Of a stretch of DNA of 64,000 bases, positions 19,571-60,302 are shown piece by piece (the first letter of the stretch is position 1; every line of letters begins with the position of its first letter). A program made the translations under genes and the position numbers. This DNA comes from Bacteroidales bacterium UBA1180 (lineage in GTDB: Bacteria > Bacteroidota > Bacteroidia > Bacteroidales > Paludibacteraceae), in NCBI GenBank assembly GCA_002310195.1, contig DBYS01000016.1, positions 60,278 to 124,277 of the forward strand. Reading direction: 5' to 3'. The notes beneath the pieces are model-generated. The model worked only from the letters and a program-made list of their open reading frames with translations. It made no database searches and had not been told where the DNA came from.

Positions 19571-19602
19571 GTGTCCGTAAAAGAATAAAAAATGAGGGCT
19601 TT

Positions 19603-19646
19603 ATCCTATGGTTATCATATGGATATCATTTGGATATCATTTGGTA
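19603..19646. repeat. 11-bp tandem array ATCCTATGGTT / ATCATATGGAT / ATCATTTGGAT / ATCATTTGGTA
   Basis: ATC occurs at 19603, 19614, 19625 and 19636. The two central units are nearly identical. Confidence 0.8.
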
Positions 19647-19725: not shown

Positions 19726-19757
19726 TTTGCATATATCAAATATTTTTTGTAACTTTG
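19726..19757 (+). promoter_or_regulatory. Promoter (-33 TTTG 19726-19729, -7 TAACTTTG 19750-19757) driving the leader and the OMP/S41 genes
   Basis: Consensus match with a 20-nt spacer. Confidence 0.6.
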
Positions 19758-19761
19758 CAAG

Positions 19762-19880
19762 CGCGTTCGGTAAACCGCGCTAACAGATGCCGCTCAGCGG
19801 CATAAAGCGCACGGTTGCCTCCGCGCTCCCCACCACAACAAGTTGTGTCGGGGGCCCCACATAAAACAACCTAATTCAAC
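19762..19880 (+). promoter_or_regulatory. Structured 5' leader RNA, copy B of a paralogous leader family
   Basis: Contains the hairpins GCGCG-N10-CGCGC (19761-19780), ATGCCGC-TCA-GCGGCAT (19787-19803) and CACAA-CAAG-TTGTG (19834-19847), then GTGTCGGGGGCCCCA (19845-19859). It is block-wise homologous to the reverse complement of 32667-32787. Confidence 0.55.
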
Positions 19881-20762
19881 ATGAACAATATAACCCATTT
19901 TAGGCGTGGTATAGGGCGAACACTCGGCGTGTTGGGCATCGTTGTGTCCACAACTGTTGTGCTCACAATGAGTGCATTGCCGATGTACGCGCAAGGGCAG
20001 AAGACCAACAACCGCGGTATGTACACCGCTCCTGCTCCTGTGCAACGCAGTGAGATCCGTTCGGGTCGTAGCGGCGTGGAGTATGAGAAAGTGCGCCGCA
20101 CGCGGCGCGGTGCCCAGTACAAGAGCCACCGCTACAGCGATATTGACCGTTCGGCGCACCCTGGCATATGGACGCTGGGCGCAACAATCGGCGCGACGTA
20201 CAACTGGCAGACACGCGAAGCAGGTTACGCGTACGACATGTCGTTCAAAGGCGGCTGGGGCGCCAACGCCGGTGTAACAGCCACATTCAAAGCATTGGAA
20301 TGGCTGAGCATCCGCGCCGATGTGCTGTTCACACAGAAGAACTTCGGCATGGAGCGAATGCAGCCCGAACTACGCGAGCAGAACATCCACTCCGACTATA
20401 TGTGCCATTACCTGCAGATCCCCGTGATGGCCGACTGGACGTTCGGCGGAGAGATAAAGAGCCATATCTACACCGGCGCTTACGGCGGAGCATGGCTCGG
20501 CGGCAACGTCAGCCGCAAGACGCTGCTGGTGACTGACGAATACCGCGCGCGGTACGAATTTACGCCCGAGGATAACCGCATAGACGGCGGTCTGGTAGGC
20601 GGTCTGGGCGTGTCGTGGGACCCGATGCCATACCTGAGAATAGGTTTTGAGGCACTGTTCTACTACAGCATGGCGAACACCGTCAAACGCCAAGCGCTGA
20701 TGAACGATACGCGATATAACAACACCGTAGTGGTGGGAGTGTCAACGAAATACGTATTCTGA
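19881..20762 (+). CDS. Outer-membrane beta-barrel protein (OMP_b-brl-like) with a long basic N-terminal extension
   Basis: Has a signal-like segment (LTMSALPMYAQGQ), alternating amphipathic beta-strands and a C-terminal aromatic residue (TKYVF). Confidence 0.65.
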   Translation: MNNITHFRRGIGRTLGVLGIVVSTTVVLTMSALPMYAQGQKTNNRGMYTAPAPVQRSEIRSGRSGVEYEKVRRTRRGAQYKSHRYSDIDRSAHPGIWTLGATIGATYNWQTREAGYAYDMSFKGGWGANAGVTATFKALEWLSIRADVLFTQKNFGMERMQPELREQNIHSDYMCHYLQIPVMADWTFGGEIKSHIYTGAYGGAWLGGNVSRKTLLVTDEYRARYEFTPEDNRIDGGLVGGLGVSWDPMPYLRIGFEALFYYSMANTVKRQALMNDTRYNNTVVVGVSTKYVF

Positions 20763-32240: not shown

Positions 32241-32666
32241 CTATTCCGTCGGCATCGGCGGCAAGCTTTGCTCAAACGGATCGCCCGTTTGCGGCCGTGT
32301 GCCCACGCTGTAGATCGAGTCCACCACGTACTGGCTGTTACCGCGCCAGGGCAGCGTACCGAGGTAACGCTTCCAATGCAACTTGATCTGACGGCCGGAG
32401 GCATTATCAATCTGCTGGGCTATACGCTCATCCTCCACCGAGAACTTAAACTCGTTGGATTGAATGGTCGAAGAGGTGTTCTTCGAATTGTAACCCGATT
32501 GAATCATCTTACCTTCGTAAGTCTTGAAGATAAAGCCTTCACGCTGGAAGTAGTTGATGTCACCCTCGTTCACGCCTGTGCTGTACACAAACCAGAACTT
32601 ATAAAACAAGAAGATACCGAGTACTACAATGAGTACAGCGGATACGATTGTAATAACTTTTTTCAT
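32241..32666 (-). CDS. Hypothetical N-terminally membrane-anchored small protein (141 aa)
   Basis: The start is set at MKKVITIVSAVLIVVLGIFLF, downstream of the mapped promoter and leader. I recognise no family. Confidence 0.6.
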   Translation of the reverse strand: MKKVITIVSAVLIVVLGIFLFYKFWFVYSTGVNEGDINYFQREGFIFKTYEGKMIQSGYNSKNTSSTIQSNEFKFSVEDERIAQQIDNASGRQIKLHWKRYLGTLPWRGNSQYVVDSIYSVGTRPQTGDPFEQSLPPMPTE

Positions 32667-32787
32667 GTCACAACAATATATTTTGGGGTCCCCGATGTAA
32701 CCGTAGGTTGCGTTGGGGAGAGCCGAGGTTGCGGTCGCTTTATGGTGCAGAGCACCATCCGCGCGAGCCACATACCGAAGGCGACTG
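32667..32787 (-). promoter_or_regulatory. Structured 5' leader RNA, copy A of the paralogous leader family
   Basis: On the minus strand it contains TTCGGTA (reverse complement of 32773-32779), the hairpin ATGGTGC-TCT-GCACCAT (32742-32758), CTCCCCA (32714-32720) and TCGGGGACCCCA (32684-32695). Confidence 0.55.
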
Positions 32788-32819
32788 CAAAGATACAAAA
32801 AAAATCCCACATTTGCAAA
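32788..32819 (-). promoter_or_regulatory. Promoter (-7 TATCTTTG is the reverse complement of 32788-32795; -33 TTTG is the reverse complement of 32816-32819)
   Basis: Consensus match with a 20-nt spacer. Confidence 0.6.
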
Positions 32820-32856
32820 TTTTGTGAGACTTTTTTTGAGAATATCTATATTTTTA

Positions 32857-39530: not shown

Positions 39531-39619
39531 TGTATCGTGTTATTATATTTTTTTCGATTTTACCAGACTACTAGGTCCCTTGTTTCCTAGTCTCCTAGGG
39601 TCCTAGCCCAAAAAGCGTA

Positions 39620-39651
39620 CAAAAGTAATAAAAAAAAATGACATTTGCAAA
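39620..39651 (-). promoter_or_regulatory. gyrA operon promoter (-7 TACTTTTG is the reverse complement of 39620-39627; -33 TTTG is the reverse complement of 39648-39651)
   Basis: Consensus match with a 20-nt spacer. It implies a 5' UTR of about 85 nt. Confidence 0.6.
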
Positions 39652-40521: not shown

Positions 40522-41934
40522 TTATCTGCGAGTTGAGCCACCGCCGGAGCGACCGCCACCGCTATGGCCACCGCTACTGTGTCCGCCTCCGCTGAAGCCT
40601 CCGCCTGAACGGCCTCCGCCGCTATAGCTGCTTGAGCTTGAGCGACTGCTGCCGCCACTGTAGCTGCTGCTCGAACGAGACGAGCTACCGCTATGGCTAC
40701 TGGAGCTGCTTGAACGGCTTGAACTGCTGTAACTGCTTGAGCGATGACTGCTTGCTGCAGGCTGCGAGCTGCTGGAGCGATGCGTGCTTGCCGTTGCGCC
40801 TGAGCGTGAACTCGACGAACTGCTTGAACGGTGCGTAGTAGCTGTAGGCCGGCTGCTTGACGAACCGCTTGAGCGGTGCGTGGTTGCCGTAGGGATCTGG
40901 CCGGTTGTGGCACGCTGGCTGACAGCTGTGGGGCGCTGACTGCCGCGCTGGTTGATCGACACGCTGCTTGAGCGCTGTGCAGGTTGTGCGCCTTGACGTG
41001 CGCTGACCTGACGTCCGTTGGCCGCAGCCTGACGGGTCGATACAGCCGACGAGCGACTTACGCCTGCGCTGCCGAACGTGTTGTCGTAACCGCGAGTGGA
41101 TCGTCCGCCCGGTGCACCTACCCTTGTAGCGGCAGTGCTTCCCTGACGCGATACGCCTCCTCCCGCACGGGATGAACGGATAGCCGTGGCACGCGATGCG
41201 TCAAGATGGCGAGCGTTGGTCACGCCGCTGTTGCGCGTTGCAAATGCACGGTCGTGATGCGCTGTTGCGTAATCGCGACGGCTGACTCCGCCATGCATGT
41301 CGTGGTACGCAGGACGCGGATAACGTGCGTAACGGAACGAGCAGTAGGGATGATGGTGATGCCAGTGGTAGCAATGATCCCAGTAGCGGTGCATCGGCCA
41401 GCAACGCCAGCTATACCACCAGTGAGGATAATAGCCCCAGTACCAAGGCGAATGCCAGCAGCACCATGTGGGTCCCCAGAACCAGTCGTAGATATACGGA
41501 CGGTAGATATATACCGGTTCGATGACGTAGTTCGCACCATATACGTACTCATCACCGATCACCTGTGTGCTGACCTGACCCGTCGCTTCATCCTTCTCGA
41601 CATAGATTGATGCAACATCCTGGAACACATCCTGTGCCAGCACGGCCTGGATAACTACCAGGTGCTTGTTGCCGTTGTTGGTCTCCACAACGCGAAGGTA
41701 ATCGACTGATCCGTCACCGTTGAGGTCAAGATTGGTGAAAGCGGAGTCAGGGTTGTTCAGGAGTGTCTCAAACTCCTCAACGTTCTTAACTGTGCCGAAC
41801 AATGTAGCCACCGCCTTCAAATCGAGCGCTTGGCTTATGTCCTCTGAGTTGGCAGAGATCGTGATCGTTTCATCTGCCCACGTACTCCAGCTAACTGTAG
41901 CCAGGAGAACGAGTAGTGATAGCAAGCGTTTCAT
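40522..41934 (-). CDS. Secreted hypothetical protein with an N-terminal globular domain, a Trp/Tyr/His/Cys-rich core and a C-terminal tail of about 230 aa rich in Ser/Arg/Gly
   Basis: Has a signal peptide (SWSTWADE), an EF-hand/dockerin-like DLNGDGSVDY motif, the core DWFWGPTWCCWHSPWYWGYYPHWWYSWRCWPMHRYWDHCYHWHHHHPYC, and a tail ending in GGGRSGGGFSGGGHSSGGHSGGGRSGGGSTRR. Confidence 0.75.
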   Translation of the reverse strand: MKRLLSLLVLLATVSWSTWADETITISANSEDISQALDLKAVATLFGTVKNVEEFETLLNNPDSAFTNLDLNGDGSVDYLRVVETNNGNKHLVVIQAVLAQDVFQDVASIYVEKDEATGQVSTQVIGDEYVYGANYVIEPVYIYRPYIYDWFWGPTWCCWHSPWYWGYYPHWWYSWRCWPMHRYWDHCYHWHHHHPYCSFRYARYPRPAYHDMHGGVSRRDYATAHHDRAFATRNSGVTNARHLDASRATAIRSSRAGGGVSRQGSTAATRVGAPGGRSTRGYDNTFGSAGVSRSSAVSTRQAAANGRQVSARQGAQPAQRSSSVSINQRGSQRPTAVSQRATTGQIPTATTHRSSGSSSSRPTATTHRSSSSSSSRSGATASTHRSSSSQPAASSHRSSSYSSSSRSSSSSSHSGSSSRSSSSYSGGSSRSSSSSYSGGGRSGGGFSGGGHSSGGHSGGGRSGGGSTRR

Positions 41935-51073: not shown

Positions 51074-51105
51074 CAAAGATAATACAATATTTTCATATTT
51101 GCAAA
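51074..51105 (-). promoter_or_regulatory. Promoter of the putative ffs gene (-7 TATCTTTG is the reverse complement of 51074-51081; -33 TTTG is the reverse complement of 51102-51105)
   Basis: Consensus match with a 20-nt spacer. No minus-strand ORF lies downstream of it. Confidence 0.6.
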
Positions 51106-58949: not shown

Positions 58950-60302
58950 TTAGTCGTCCTCATGTTCGCGAATAAGGAAGACGGACGCGGCACCTAATAG
59001 CAACAGCACACCTGCCACTACAAGCATTCCTGCCTGCTCGTGGCCACAGACGAACTTCAGCAGCAGACCACCGCACAATGCAGCAACGATCTGCGGCACG
59101 CAAATTGTGCAGTTGAACAAACCGAGATAGTAGCCCATGTTTCCGCCCTTGATGGCGTTCGTCACGATAGTGAACGGAAGCGCCAGCATTGCAGCCCATG
59201 CCGCACCAATCAGGGCATAACTGATCCAGAGCACATATTGGTCGTTCACAAAGAACACCGATACAAAGCCTATTGCGCCCACAACGAGGGACACAGCGTA
59301 AGCACCTTTGTTTCCGAACCACTGCTCAAGCTTCGGCAGGAACGCAGCCCAAAGCAGCGAACCAACAGCCTGCACGCAGAACACTACTCCAACCCAGTTG
59401 CCGGCATCCTGGAAAGCCACATCCTTGGCATCCAAGCCGTCCCAACCGAAGCAGTTGGCGGCGATAGCACCGTTGGAGTAAGTCCACATATACATGAACG
59501 CCGACCAGCAGAAGAACTGCACCAGACCAACTGTCCAGAACGCTGACGGAGCGTCACGGAGCAACTCGATGAAGCCCTTGTCAGGCTCTTGGCTCTGTGC
59601 CGAAGATTCCTGGCTAATGCCGTGGAACTCAGCATATTCCTCAGGGTTAAGCTCCTTAACCGTGCAGAAGGTATAAAGCGAGCAGAGGATAAGGATTGCC
59701 GCGCCGGCATAGAACGACCACTTGACGGAGTCAGGGATGACGCCCTCGGGAGCCGTGTTAGCTATACCGATCCATGTAAAGAATATCGGGAACAAGTAAC
59801 CAACCACCGAACCTGCGTTGCACAGCGCCGACTGGATGGCGTAAGCCGTACCTTTCTGTTCCTCGTTGACCATGTCGCCGACCATCATCTTGAACGGCTG
59901 CATGGCAATGTTGATACTTGTGTCAAGGAACATAAGGCTGAACAATCCAAACCACATAGCGGCATTCAGGCCAAGGAACGCGGACTGCGCGAAGGTGAAG
60001 TTTCCGGCATTCGGCAACAGCAGCATCACAGCCACAGCAATCAAAGCGCCTACCAACAGATACGGCTTGCGGCGACCGAGACGATTCCACGTCTTGTCAC
60101 TGTACTTGCCCACCAACGGCTGAACAATCATACCCATCAGTGGCGGAAGAATCCAAAAGAAACTCAAAGTGTGCGGGTCAGCACCGAGAGTGGCGAAGAT
60201 TCGCGAGATGTTGGCACTCTGCAAGGCGTAAGCAATCTGCACGCCGAAGAATCCGAAACTCAGATTAAATAATTGCCCAAACGAGCGATTCGTATTTTTC
60301 AT
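58950..60302 (-). CDS. MFS transporter, SLC45 / sucrose-maltose:H+ symporter-like
   Basis: Has 12 predicted TM-like segments and the N-terminal motifs GFFGVQIAYALQ and DKTWNRLGRRKPY, typical of GPH/SLC45-type sugar transporters. Confidence 0.8.
   Translation of the reverse strand: MKNTNRSFGQLFNLSFGFFGVQIAYALQSANISRIFATLGADPHTLSFFWILPPLMGMIVQPLVGKYSDKTWNRLGRRKPYLLVGALIAVAVMLLLPNAGNFTFAQSAFLGLNAAMWFGLFSLMFLDTSINIAMQPFKMMVGDMVNEEQKGTAYAIQSALCNAGSVVGYLFPIFFTWIGIANTAPEGVIPDSVKWSFYAGAAILILCSLYTFCTVKELNPEEYAEFHGISQESSAQSQEPDKGFIELLRDAPSAFWTVGLVQFFCWSAFMYMWTYSNGAIAANCFGWDGLDAKDVAFQDAGNWVGVVFCVQAVGSLLWAAFLPKLEQWFGNKGAYAVSLVVGAIGFVSVFFVNDQYVLWISYALIGAAWAAMLALPFTIVTNAIKGGNMGYYLGLFNCTICVPQIVAALCGGLLLKFVCGHEQAGMLVVAGVLLLLGAASVFLIREHEDD

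Follow-up and report, generated by a model that had tools for sequence, protein, structure and literature searches.

The 64,000-nt stretch analysed here, referred to below as the window (positions 60,278 to 124,277 of the forward strand of contig DBYS01000016.1, assembly GCA_002310195.1, Bacteroidales bacterium UBA1180), carries upstream of a gene for a small membrane-anchored protein (gene A) a GC-rich, structured leader sequence of 101 nt, which we term copy A. Copy A is probably a lineage-specific insertion of a non-autonomous, structured interspersed repeat, whose effect on the downstream operon would be neutral or mildly stabilising. The repeat family to which it belongs is confined to ruminant-gut Paludibacteraceae/Bacteroidales and is previously undescribed; our search of the literature on repeats and structured RNAs in Paludibacteraceae and Bacteroidales found no description of it. 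We class it as a structured repeat akin to Rickettsia palindromic elements (RPEs) and MITEs (transposable elements of the miniature inverted-repeat type), and by analogy it resembles selfish or mobile-type repeats of the RPE kind that are retained where harmless. Copies were found in untranslated regions (UTRs), tRNA spacers, an RNase P helix and protein surface loops, and it is this variety of contexts that indicates an interspersed repeat kept wherever it does no harm.

Copy A and the repeat family

Copy A (32685–32785, minus strand) gave a full-length match to two covariance models, model R1 (83.1 bits, E 1.5e-12) and the independent model R2 (74.1 bits, E 2.6e-14). Model R2 was built from metagenome copies only, with no window sequence, and was run with filters off; on the 64-kb window it matched copy A and a second copy, copy B (19760–19858, plus strand; 82.8 bits, E 3e-16), the next best match having E=1, and no third copy was found in the window by nhmmer or by either covariance model. 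Copy B lies upstream of an OMP_b-brl_2 outer-membrane protein (OMP) gene (19881–20762) and an S41 peptidase gene, behind a promoter with a -33 TTTG at 19726–19729 and a -7 box TAACTTTG at 19750–19757 (plus strand). The initial annotation had described 32667–32787 (minus) as colinear with 19762–19880 (plus) and had pointed to compensatory changes, and the alignment confirms this; where one copy has the stem AUGGUGC/GCACCAU, for instance, the other has AUGCCGC/GCGGCAU. The sequence is present over the whole span given there for the leader, 32667–32787; the conserved unit is shorter, being that of copy A itself. Single-sequence folds of both copies were more stable than those of shuffled sequences, with z values of -2.2 (copy A) and -3.9 (copy B). 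In Rfam 15, E-value scans of the two copies returned only weak, unrelated models (E at least 0.4), lying mostly over the promoter or terminator.

According to the pair map of the model alignment, with covariation assessed per helix, the 5' domain of copy A (32722–32782, minus strand throughout) is a single long bulged hairpin comprising P1 (32780–32782 with 32722–32724), P2 (32768–32776 with 32727–32734), P2b (32763–32766 with 32735–32738) and P3 (32752–32758 with 32742–32748), which is capped by a UCU loop. The 3' domain is hairpin P4 (32689–32719), in which UCCCC (32715–32719) pairs with GGGGA (32689–32693) around a variable inner stem-loop, AACC UAC GGUU, and the unit closes with an invariant CCCC tail (GGGGNCCCC; 32685–32688). 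An A/U-rich spacer of 18 nt outside the repeat (32667–32684) separates it from the ATG at 32664–32666 and is unpaired in the centroid fold. No U-tract follows P4, and folding revealed neither a terminator nor an alternative structure that would sequester the start codon.

The size of the family was assessed by a pattern scan (AAAGCG-N5-14-CCTCNNNNCTCCCCA-N8-30-GGGGNCCCC) of one genome per species across 185,579 species, which returned 62 loci in 39 assemblies, with about 0.25 matches estimated to arise by chance. One match, L045 (Pampinifervens), was rejected as a chance occurrence as model R1 gives no match there; the 38 assemblies with the element are all Paludibacteraceae or unclassified Bacteroidales metagenome-assembled genomes from ruminant gut, and the window itself is assigned to Paludibacteraceae by the names of its proteins' nearest homologues. 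The 5' half of the unit, (T)CGCGTTCGGCAA ... CAGA, which lies outside the search pattern, is conserved to the same degree. Model R1 recognised 78 copies in the pattern-scan loci, diverged ones included, with up to five per 8 kb, and a looser pattern applied to metagenome contigs yielded at least 93 further confirmed copies, bringing the family to at least 171 model matches of 95–117 nt.

Across the family the unit begins with (T)CGCG and ends with GGGGNCCCC, the long bulged hairpin P1-P2-P2b-P3 being followed by P4. The junctions UUCGGCAA, ACAGA/AAA and UGCCUCCGCUCUCCCCA are constant across copies while the stems vary freely. In the consensus, P1 (GCG/CGC) is followed by an internal loop UUC/UC, by P2 (GGCA plus four to five variable pairs, with a bulged A), by P2b of 4 bp, by the ACAGA/AAA internal loop and by the variable hairpin P3; after a UCU linker, P4 (UCCCC/GGGGR) surrounds a variable inner hairpin ahead of the CCCC tail. 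In alignment A4, 92.0% of the cells at paired positions were standard pairs, as against 71% when shuffled and 35–51% when slid, and 26 of 31 pairs had changed on both sides; the corresponding values for alignment A6 were 93.3%, 71%, 35–51% and 28 of 31. Several paired positions show all four Watson-Crick types. This excess of paired cells, together with the two-sided changes, indicates that the fold is a real constraint. Selection at the RNA level usually leaves a clear excess of G.U, and G.U and A.C cells in the stems stood at 131:108, with no RNA-type strand asymmetry, so that the constraint could equally act on DNA hairpins; the ratio is either uninformative or speaks against selection on RNA alone. 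Most copies possess one or two stop-free frames, on both strands about equally often.

Placement of the copies and the orthologous loci

The promoter of copy A was located from the sequence and a scan with the Bacteroidetes consensus TTTG/TAnnTTTG (PMC7366714). Its -33 TTTG (32816–32819) and -7 box TATCTTTG (32788–32795), both on the minus strand, are canonical, and P1 begins 4 nt 3' of the -7 box. The -33 box lies within the loop of a terminator-like hairpin after cinA (AAAAAAAGTCTCACA...TGTGGGATTTTTTTT; 32797–32837, minus strand), which overlaps the promoter and is kept at orthologous loci. The same hairpin and promoter occur at L001, L003 and L013, and the promoter of copy A is therefore ancestral.

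Gene A (32241–32666, minus strand) encodes a 141-residue, N-terminally anchored protein that matched no Pfam or NCBIfam family, and is the first gene ahead of an acyl-CoA ligase gene and CoaX. An open reading frame (ORF) of 189 aa results when the gene is extended to a GTG at 32808–32810, the extension (32667–32810, minus strand) reading through the stop-free element. In more than 2000 homologues, about 138–145 aa long, the first residue is the MKK methionine, and the orthologous loci have unrelated leaders; the extension is thus non-coding, as had been suspected. The 189-aa ORF is an artefact and the extension should stay unannotated; another assembly contains this artefact too, as the 185-aa P0001.

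Orthologues of gene A at seven distinct loci among L001–L012 (77–87% amino acid identity) keep the operon and the promoter, including the hairpin embracing the -33 box; their leaders, of about 25–75 nt, are unrelated and usually begin with a small GC hairpin. At four orthologous loci of the OMP gene behind copy B (gene B; L076–L079, 63–72% amino acid identity), promoter and OMP-S41 operon are likewise retained, and the leaders measure about 28–60 nt. Model R1 found no match at L001–L012 or L076–L079. The sole orthologous locus of gene A with the element is L013, which is 99% identical, of the same species and from a different sample, and whose copy differs from that of the window by one substitution (C>A in the P4 inner stem). 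Since promoters and operons are kept where the element is absent, both window copies are recent, lineage-specific arrivals behind pre-existing promoters. Such a lack of conservation is what the initial annotation had itself named as refuting its reading. The possibility that promoter and element moved as a single unit was rejected for copy A, as orthologues without the element share the promoter and the overlapping terminator hairpin; the likeness of the promoters of A, B and other copies reflects the general consensus of the genome.

From these observations, the element would have inserted precisely where transcription from an ancestral promoter begins, so that the mRNA of the gene A operon would begin with about 100 nt of stable structure, P1 lying some 4 nt from the predicted +1. 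The 18-nt A-rich stretch after the element would remain free for translation initiation; in Bacteroidetes mRNAs an A-rich region upstream of the start codon serves in place of a Shine-Dalgarno sequence (PMC7366714). The leader of copy A would accordingly be an insertion and not a device evolved for the gene A operon. We infer that its effect on the operon is either neutral or a generic stabilisation of the 5' end and not signal-responsive control.

Among 155 distinct copies, a full TAnnTTTG box stands exactly 4 nt before P1 in 23 (about 15%, A and B included), and only four others have a full -7 box within 6 nt, at 2, 3 or 6 nt. The -33 TTTG of promoter-proximal copies peaks at the expected distance, and such copies total 23–29 of the 155 (about 15–19%). 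Together with the -7 consensus (PMC7366714), the 4-nt spacing puts the predicted +1 within the unit's opening nucleotides. Promoter-proximal copies stand before genes that are unrelated to one another and include secA, secG, nadE, ksgA, a yhcH-like gene, a LytTR gene and genes for secreted proteins in addition to both window genes. Further copies lie just 3' of genes and in convergent gaps.

Copies were also found within and against stable RNA genes. In two species (L040 and L054) the element sits inside helix P12 of RNase P RNA (rnpB), and the 3' end of a tmRNA is joined directly to the 5' end of an element. Antisense copies fill the spacers of a tRNA Gly-Leu-Leu operon, the 5' end of the element abutting the tRNA +1 to the nucleotide (L122 twice, and L153; L028 has such a copy beside another tRNA). 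The operon with the element spans 7030–7535 in L122 and 3035–3429 in L153, and the same operon in L028 (6316–6671) has short spacers and no element.

Within ORFs, in-frame and stop-free copies are hosted by a class-I aminoacyl-tRNA synthetase (IleS-like), RecF (two species), DapB (at least six lineages), an MTS methyltransferase, Ham1/RdgB, a DUF5723-like outer-membrane protein and, with the copy in antisense, an S66 LD-carboxypeptidase. In comparison with PDB structures of DapB and RecF, the insert amounts to about 33 extra residues between conserved blocks, and in our alignment of DapB relatives (A5) the segment ...AFGN...DASALPKNWKFSGTP... is present in six lineages and in none of the others. 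Copies in coding sequences (CDS) and rnpB score like UTR copies (66–107 bits, model R1), which fits recent arrival better than a locus-specific RNA function. A self-cleaving ribozyme or small intron was rejected given that Rfam gave no match, that copies occur in ileS, recF and dapB, and that every copy in a CDS keeps the frame and lacks stops; conservation of the peptide segment in DapB lineages also counters it.

The dapB gene contains a second class of GC-rich palindromes of about 20 nt (L053 around 690–720, L080 and alignment A5), which occur in frame up to three times and encode PSLPEGK (CCCTCCCTGAAGGGAAGG), PSLKGRE (CCCTTCCCTAAAAGGAAGGG) and PSLQGG (CCCTTCCCTTCAGGGAGGGG). Depending on the lineage, the DapB loop after GSTGW holds either a small palindrome or the large element.

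A prophage-like lysis cassette (L025, 1250–4100; also L017, L031 and L062) carries four to five copies of the element. It comprises a holin, an endolysin-like protein and a lipoprotein spanin-like ORF, and a conserved 21-codon hydrophobic ORF (MKRLQLTTA...LAFGN, then stop) terminates within the element upstream of the holin. A phage origin of the family was rejected, although this cassette carries several copies, as a search of IMG/VR gave 0 matches. One subfamily is embedded between copies of a short repeat, GTTTAGAGGACGC (L022, L024, L029, L036, L039, L058 and L074), which suggests composite repeat arrays.

Mobility and alternative explanations

We infer present or past mobility of the element. 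Two nearly identical dapB alleles, L053 with the element and L080 without it, differ over a tract longer than the element; this indicates that the element moved between lineages by homologous recombination of dapB, and no target-site duplication can be read there. The rnpB copies of two species have flanks about 92% identical, identical constant blocks and entirely different variable stems, which points to replacement or re-insertion at one site. Spread would thus have proceeded partly via homologous recombination of flanking DNA, as at dapB, and via exchange between copies, as at rnpB. An insertion in recF common to two species shows divergence like that of its flanks, and part of its 5' strand is missing (66–87 bits); it thus appears to behave as a passenger would. 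In a pair of orthologous copies (L017, 2860–2959; L025, 4206–4305) the P4 hairpin loop is inverted (GTTACAGAC versus GTCTGTAAC) and the rest is nearly identical, a pattern diagnostic of an event at a DNA hairpin or of template switching.

Several observations nonetheless weigh against a harmless, mobile repeat as the full explanation. All-against-all clustering of neighbouring ORFs at 62 loci revealed no recurrent transposase, reverse transcriptase or other partner. The unit has no terminal inverted repeats, its ends TCGCGTTCGG... and ...GGGGNCCCC not being reverse complements of each other, and flank profiles showed no repeated flank and no readable target-site duplication. A search of metagenomes for an empty allele of the copy A site gave 0 matches. 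The exact 4-nt spacing to the -7 box is hard to explain by random insertion followed by tolerance, and in co-directional gene contexts sense copies outnumber antisense copies by 18:5. Furthermore, the holin-upstream copy is 98–100% identical over 100 nt in four species whose flanks are only 70–85% identical, which suggests either selection on some copies or very recent renewal.

These observations bear first on the tentative possibility that the promoter-proximal copies, A and B included, were exapted and kept because a structure about 4 nt from the RNA 5' end acts in cis, where it could shield the mRNA from 5'-end-dependent decay (ompA-type) or act through the polymerase or a bound protein (put/LoaP-type antitermination). 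The exact spacing in 23 of 27 copies, the favoured sense orientation and the holin-upstream copy that is far better conserved than its flanks would agree with such a role, as would the A-rich start region left free, the junctions constant in all copies and the small GC hairpins with which the ancestral gene A leaders also open. On the other hand, close relatives lack the element at both loci, the downstream genes share nothing, and identical antisense units lie in tRNA spacers and inside ORFs, where a role of this kind is impossible; moreover, no alternative fold forming a terminator or sequestering the start codon was seen, and the transcription start on which the idea depends is taken from the consensus.

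The equal folding of both strands opens a further, somewhat doubtful, explanation at the level of DNA, in which the unit forms a single-stranded (ssDNA) or cruciform fold recognised by a trans-acting HUH/Y1 transposase or recombinase (as with IS200/IS605 palindrome-associated transposable elements (PATEs), REPINs and attC) or has its stems kept perfect by hairpin-templated repair. The G.U to A.C balance (131:108), the P4-loop inversion, the intact state of antisense copies and the insertions at the feet of tRNA/tmRNA cloverleaves and in an rnpB hairpin are all in keeping with this, as is the frequent presence of other small palindromes in the dapB loop, a hot spot for them. Sites of these kinds are, however, poorly matched by the family: no conserved 4–5-nt target lies beside the left end, where a T at -1 (84%) is the sole conserved position, no GTTRRRY/RYYYAAC core pair or nearby transposase/integrase was found, and a nested multi-helix design with constant junctions would be unusual for them.

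The position of the 5' boundary at RNA ends (promoter +1, tRNA +1 and tmRNA 3' end) argues for a specific mechanism, whether RNA-templated or directed at DNA hairpins or ssDNA. Single-nucleotide placement at transcription starts and tRNA/tmRNA ends, along with wholesale exchange of stems at fixed sites, are unusual and unexplained features of the family. They might reflect a new kind of mobile element that inserts in connection with RNA ends, by start- or structured-end-targeted integration or by RNA-templated copying resembling that of short interspersed nuclear elements (SINEs), with stems exchanged at fixed sites; we consider this rather unlikely, and if true it would represent a new kind of bacterial mobile element.

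Spread by SINE-like retroposition, in which a source RNA begins at the transcription start of the promoter-bearing copies and promoterless copies are its retro-copies, seems distinctly unlikely. The 5' similarity boundary of all copies does coincide with the predicted +1 of the promoter-bearing ones, the element 5' end follows the tmRNA 3' end in a head-to-tail junction as template switching predicts, and orientation is biased to sense. Copy A, however, stands behind an ancestral promoter and must therefore have been inserted rather than have served as a source gene, junctions with tRNAs are head-to-head, and the stems have no G.U excess over A.C; there was no reverse transcriptase near the copies, and neither a 3' tail nor variable 5' truncation was seen.

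The initial annotation had proposed a cis-regulatory RNA family, or a shared sRNA or protein target, ahead of envelope genes. A structured, covarying family at the predicted 5' end of transcripts does exist, but an envelope regulon is not supported, and a dedicated riboswitch or protein-binding leader defining such a regulon is very unlikely. Strong covariation and conserved unpaired junctions would suit a leader of this type, and some of the downstream genes are related to the envelope or secretion (OMP, small membrane protein, secA, secG and holin). Copies are also found before unrelated housekeeping genes, with nadE, ksgA, the yhcH-like gene and the LytTR gene among the genes downstream, as well as 3' of genes, in antisense tRNA spacers, in rnpB and in ORFs; promoter-proximal copies make up only about 15–19%, the element is absent at orthologous loci, and no expression platform or Rfam relative was seen. 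The regulon is thus largely refuted by the distribution of copies. Finally, that two GC-rich leaders resemble each other by chance or through faulty assembly is extremely improbable and was rejected, in agreement with the initial annotation, given E values of 3e-14 and 3e-16 from the independent model, more than 170 further copies in independent assemblies and the L013 copy from another sample; all that speaks for it is the likeness of the promoter parts of A and B, which is generic, as eight other window promoters share the same consensus.

Other window features and comparison with known systems

At the gathering threshold, Rfam 15 matched only the Bacteroidales small signal recognition particle (SRP) RNA in the whole window (RF04183, 50952–51059, minus strand, 105.5 bits), which has its own canonical promoter with a -7 box ending at 51074. 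The space between an AraC-family gene and the OMP operon holds four tandem copies of an 11-nt repeat, TTATCATATGG (19601–19645, plus strand), about 80 nt upstream of copy B's promoter. The gyrA leader (39545–39620, minus strand) lies behind a canonical promoter and contains CTAGG-rich imperfect repeats (GGGCTAGGACCCTAGGAGACTAGGAAACAAGGGACCTAGTAG); in L054, another helix of rnpB has heptamer-like repeats (GGACCAAGG/GGACTAAGG) that resemble them. At 40765–40893, apparently within a coding region, a 45-nt unit is repeated in tandem 2.7 times (75% matches), and repeats of 9–15 nt adjoin it at 40584–40740.

Like riboswitches and other Rfam leaders, the family occurs in 5' UTRs, combines conserved junctions with covarying stems and is present in several copies per genome; it differs from them in having no Rfam match, no coherent set of genes and no expression platform, and in its copies within ORFs, RNA genes and antisense positions. 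The repeats could be mistaken for riboswitch-like leaders, and a family model would clean the annotation of an abundant rumen lineage; likewise, gene callers extend ORFs through stop-free repeats, as with the 189-aa ORF here and the 185-aa P0001. In 5' stabilisers of the ompA type a stable helix starts only a few nucleotides from the RNA 5' end, and the translation start region behind it is accessible. Copy A shares the predicted helix near the RNA 5' end and the free start region; ompA-type stabilisers, however, are locus-specific and conserved with their gene, whereas the present element is interchangeable and absent from orthologues. If 5'-terminal copies do stabilise mRNAs, the family would constitute a natural portable expression module for Bacteroidota.

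Tolerance of repeats in helix P12 of rnpB, which holds the element in L040 and L054, is also known for the cyanobacterial RNase P short tandemly repeated repetitive sequences (STRRs; Vioque 1997), but STRRs are tandem arrays of heptamers, not a structured unit of 100 nt, and do not occur in ORFs in this way. Integron attC sites were rejected as a match, since the unit lacks the core-site pair (its 5' block is GTTCGGC, with GCCTCCGC as partner) and its copies lie inside genes and RNA genes. IS200/IS605 PATEs and REP/REPIN sequences are palindromes of 20–40 nt with a conserved 4–5-nt target, in contrast to the compound fold of 100 nt with a T at -1 alone. With MITEs, Correia/ERIC-type and REP/REPIN repeats the family has in common that it is short, multi-copy, structured, non-coding, co-transcribed with neighbours and lineage-restricted, and such repeats can change mRNA stability or supply regulatory signals (PMC10969869; PMC8049555). 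It departs from MITEs and REPINs in that terminal inverted repeats are absent, a target-site duplication could not be read and neither a related IS nor a RAYT was seen near copies, and covariation in its stems is much stronger than decaying transposon copies would give.

The closest analogue appears to be the RPEs. According to PMC10969869 (citing Ogata et al. 2000, 2002), these are non-autonomous, dispersed repeats of about 100–150 bp that form stable hairpins and occur both in intergenic regions and in frame, stop-free, within unrelated housekeeping ORFs, to which they add a peptide segment, all of which applies to the present family. The likeness claimed is one of analogy only, and the hosts here are free-living gut anaerobes of the phylum Bacteroidota. 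RPEs also occur in stable RNA genes (tmRNA). Whereas an RPE is a simple palindrome, the present unit is a two-domain compound fold with constant junctions and covarying stems, and a sizeable fraction of its copies lies exactly at transcription starts and tRNA/tmRNA ends. To our knowledge, this is the first RPE-like family outside Rickettsia-type genomes found in essential proteins (IleS, RecF and DapB), RNase P RNA, tRNA spacers and transcription starts. Its single-nucleotide precision at promoters and tRNA/tmRNA ends offers a handle on how orphan repeats move, a question that has stood for 25 years for RPEs.

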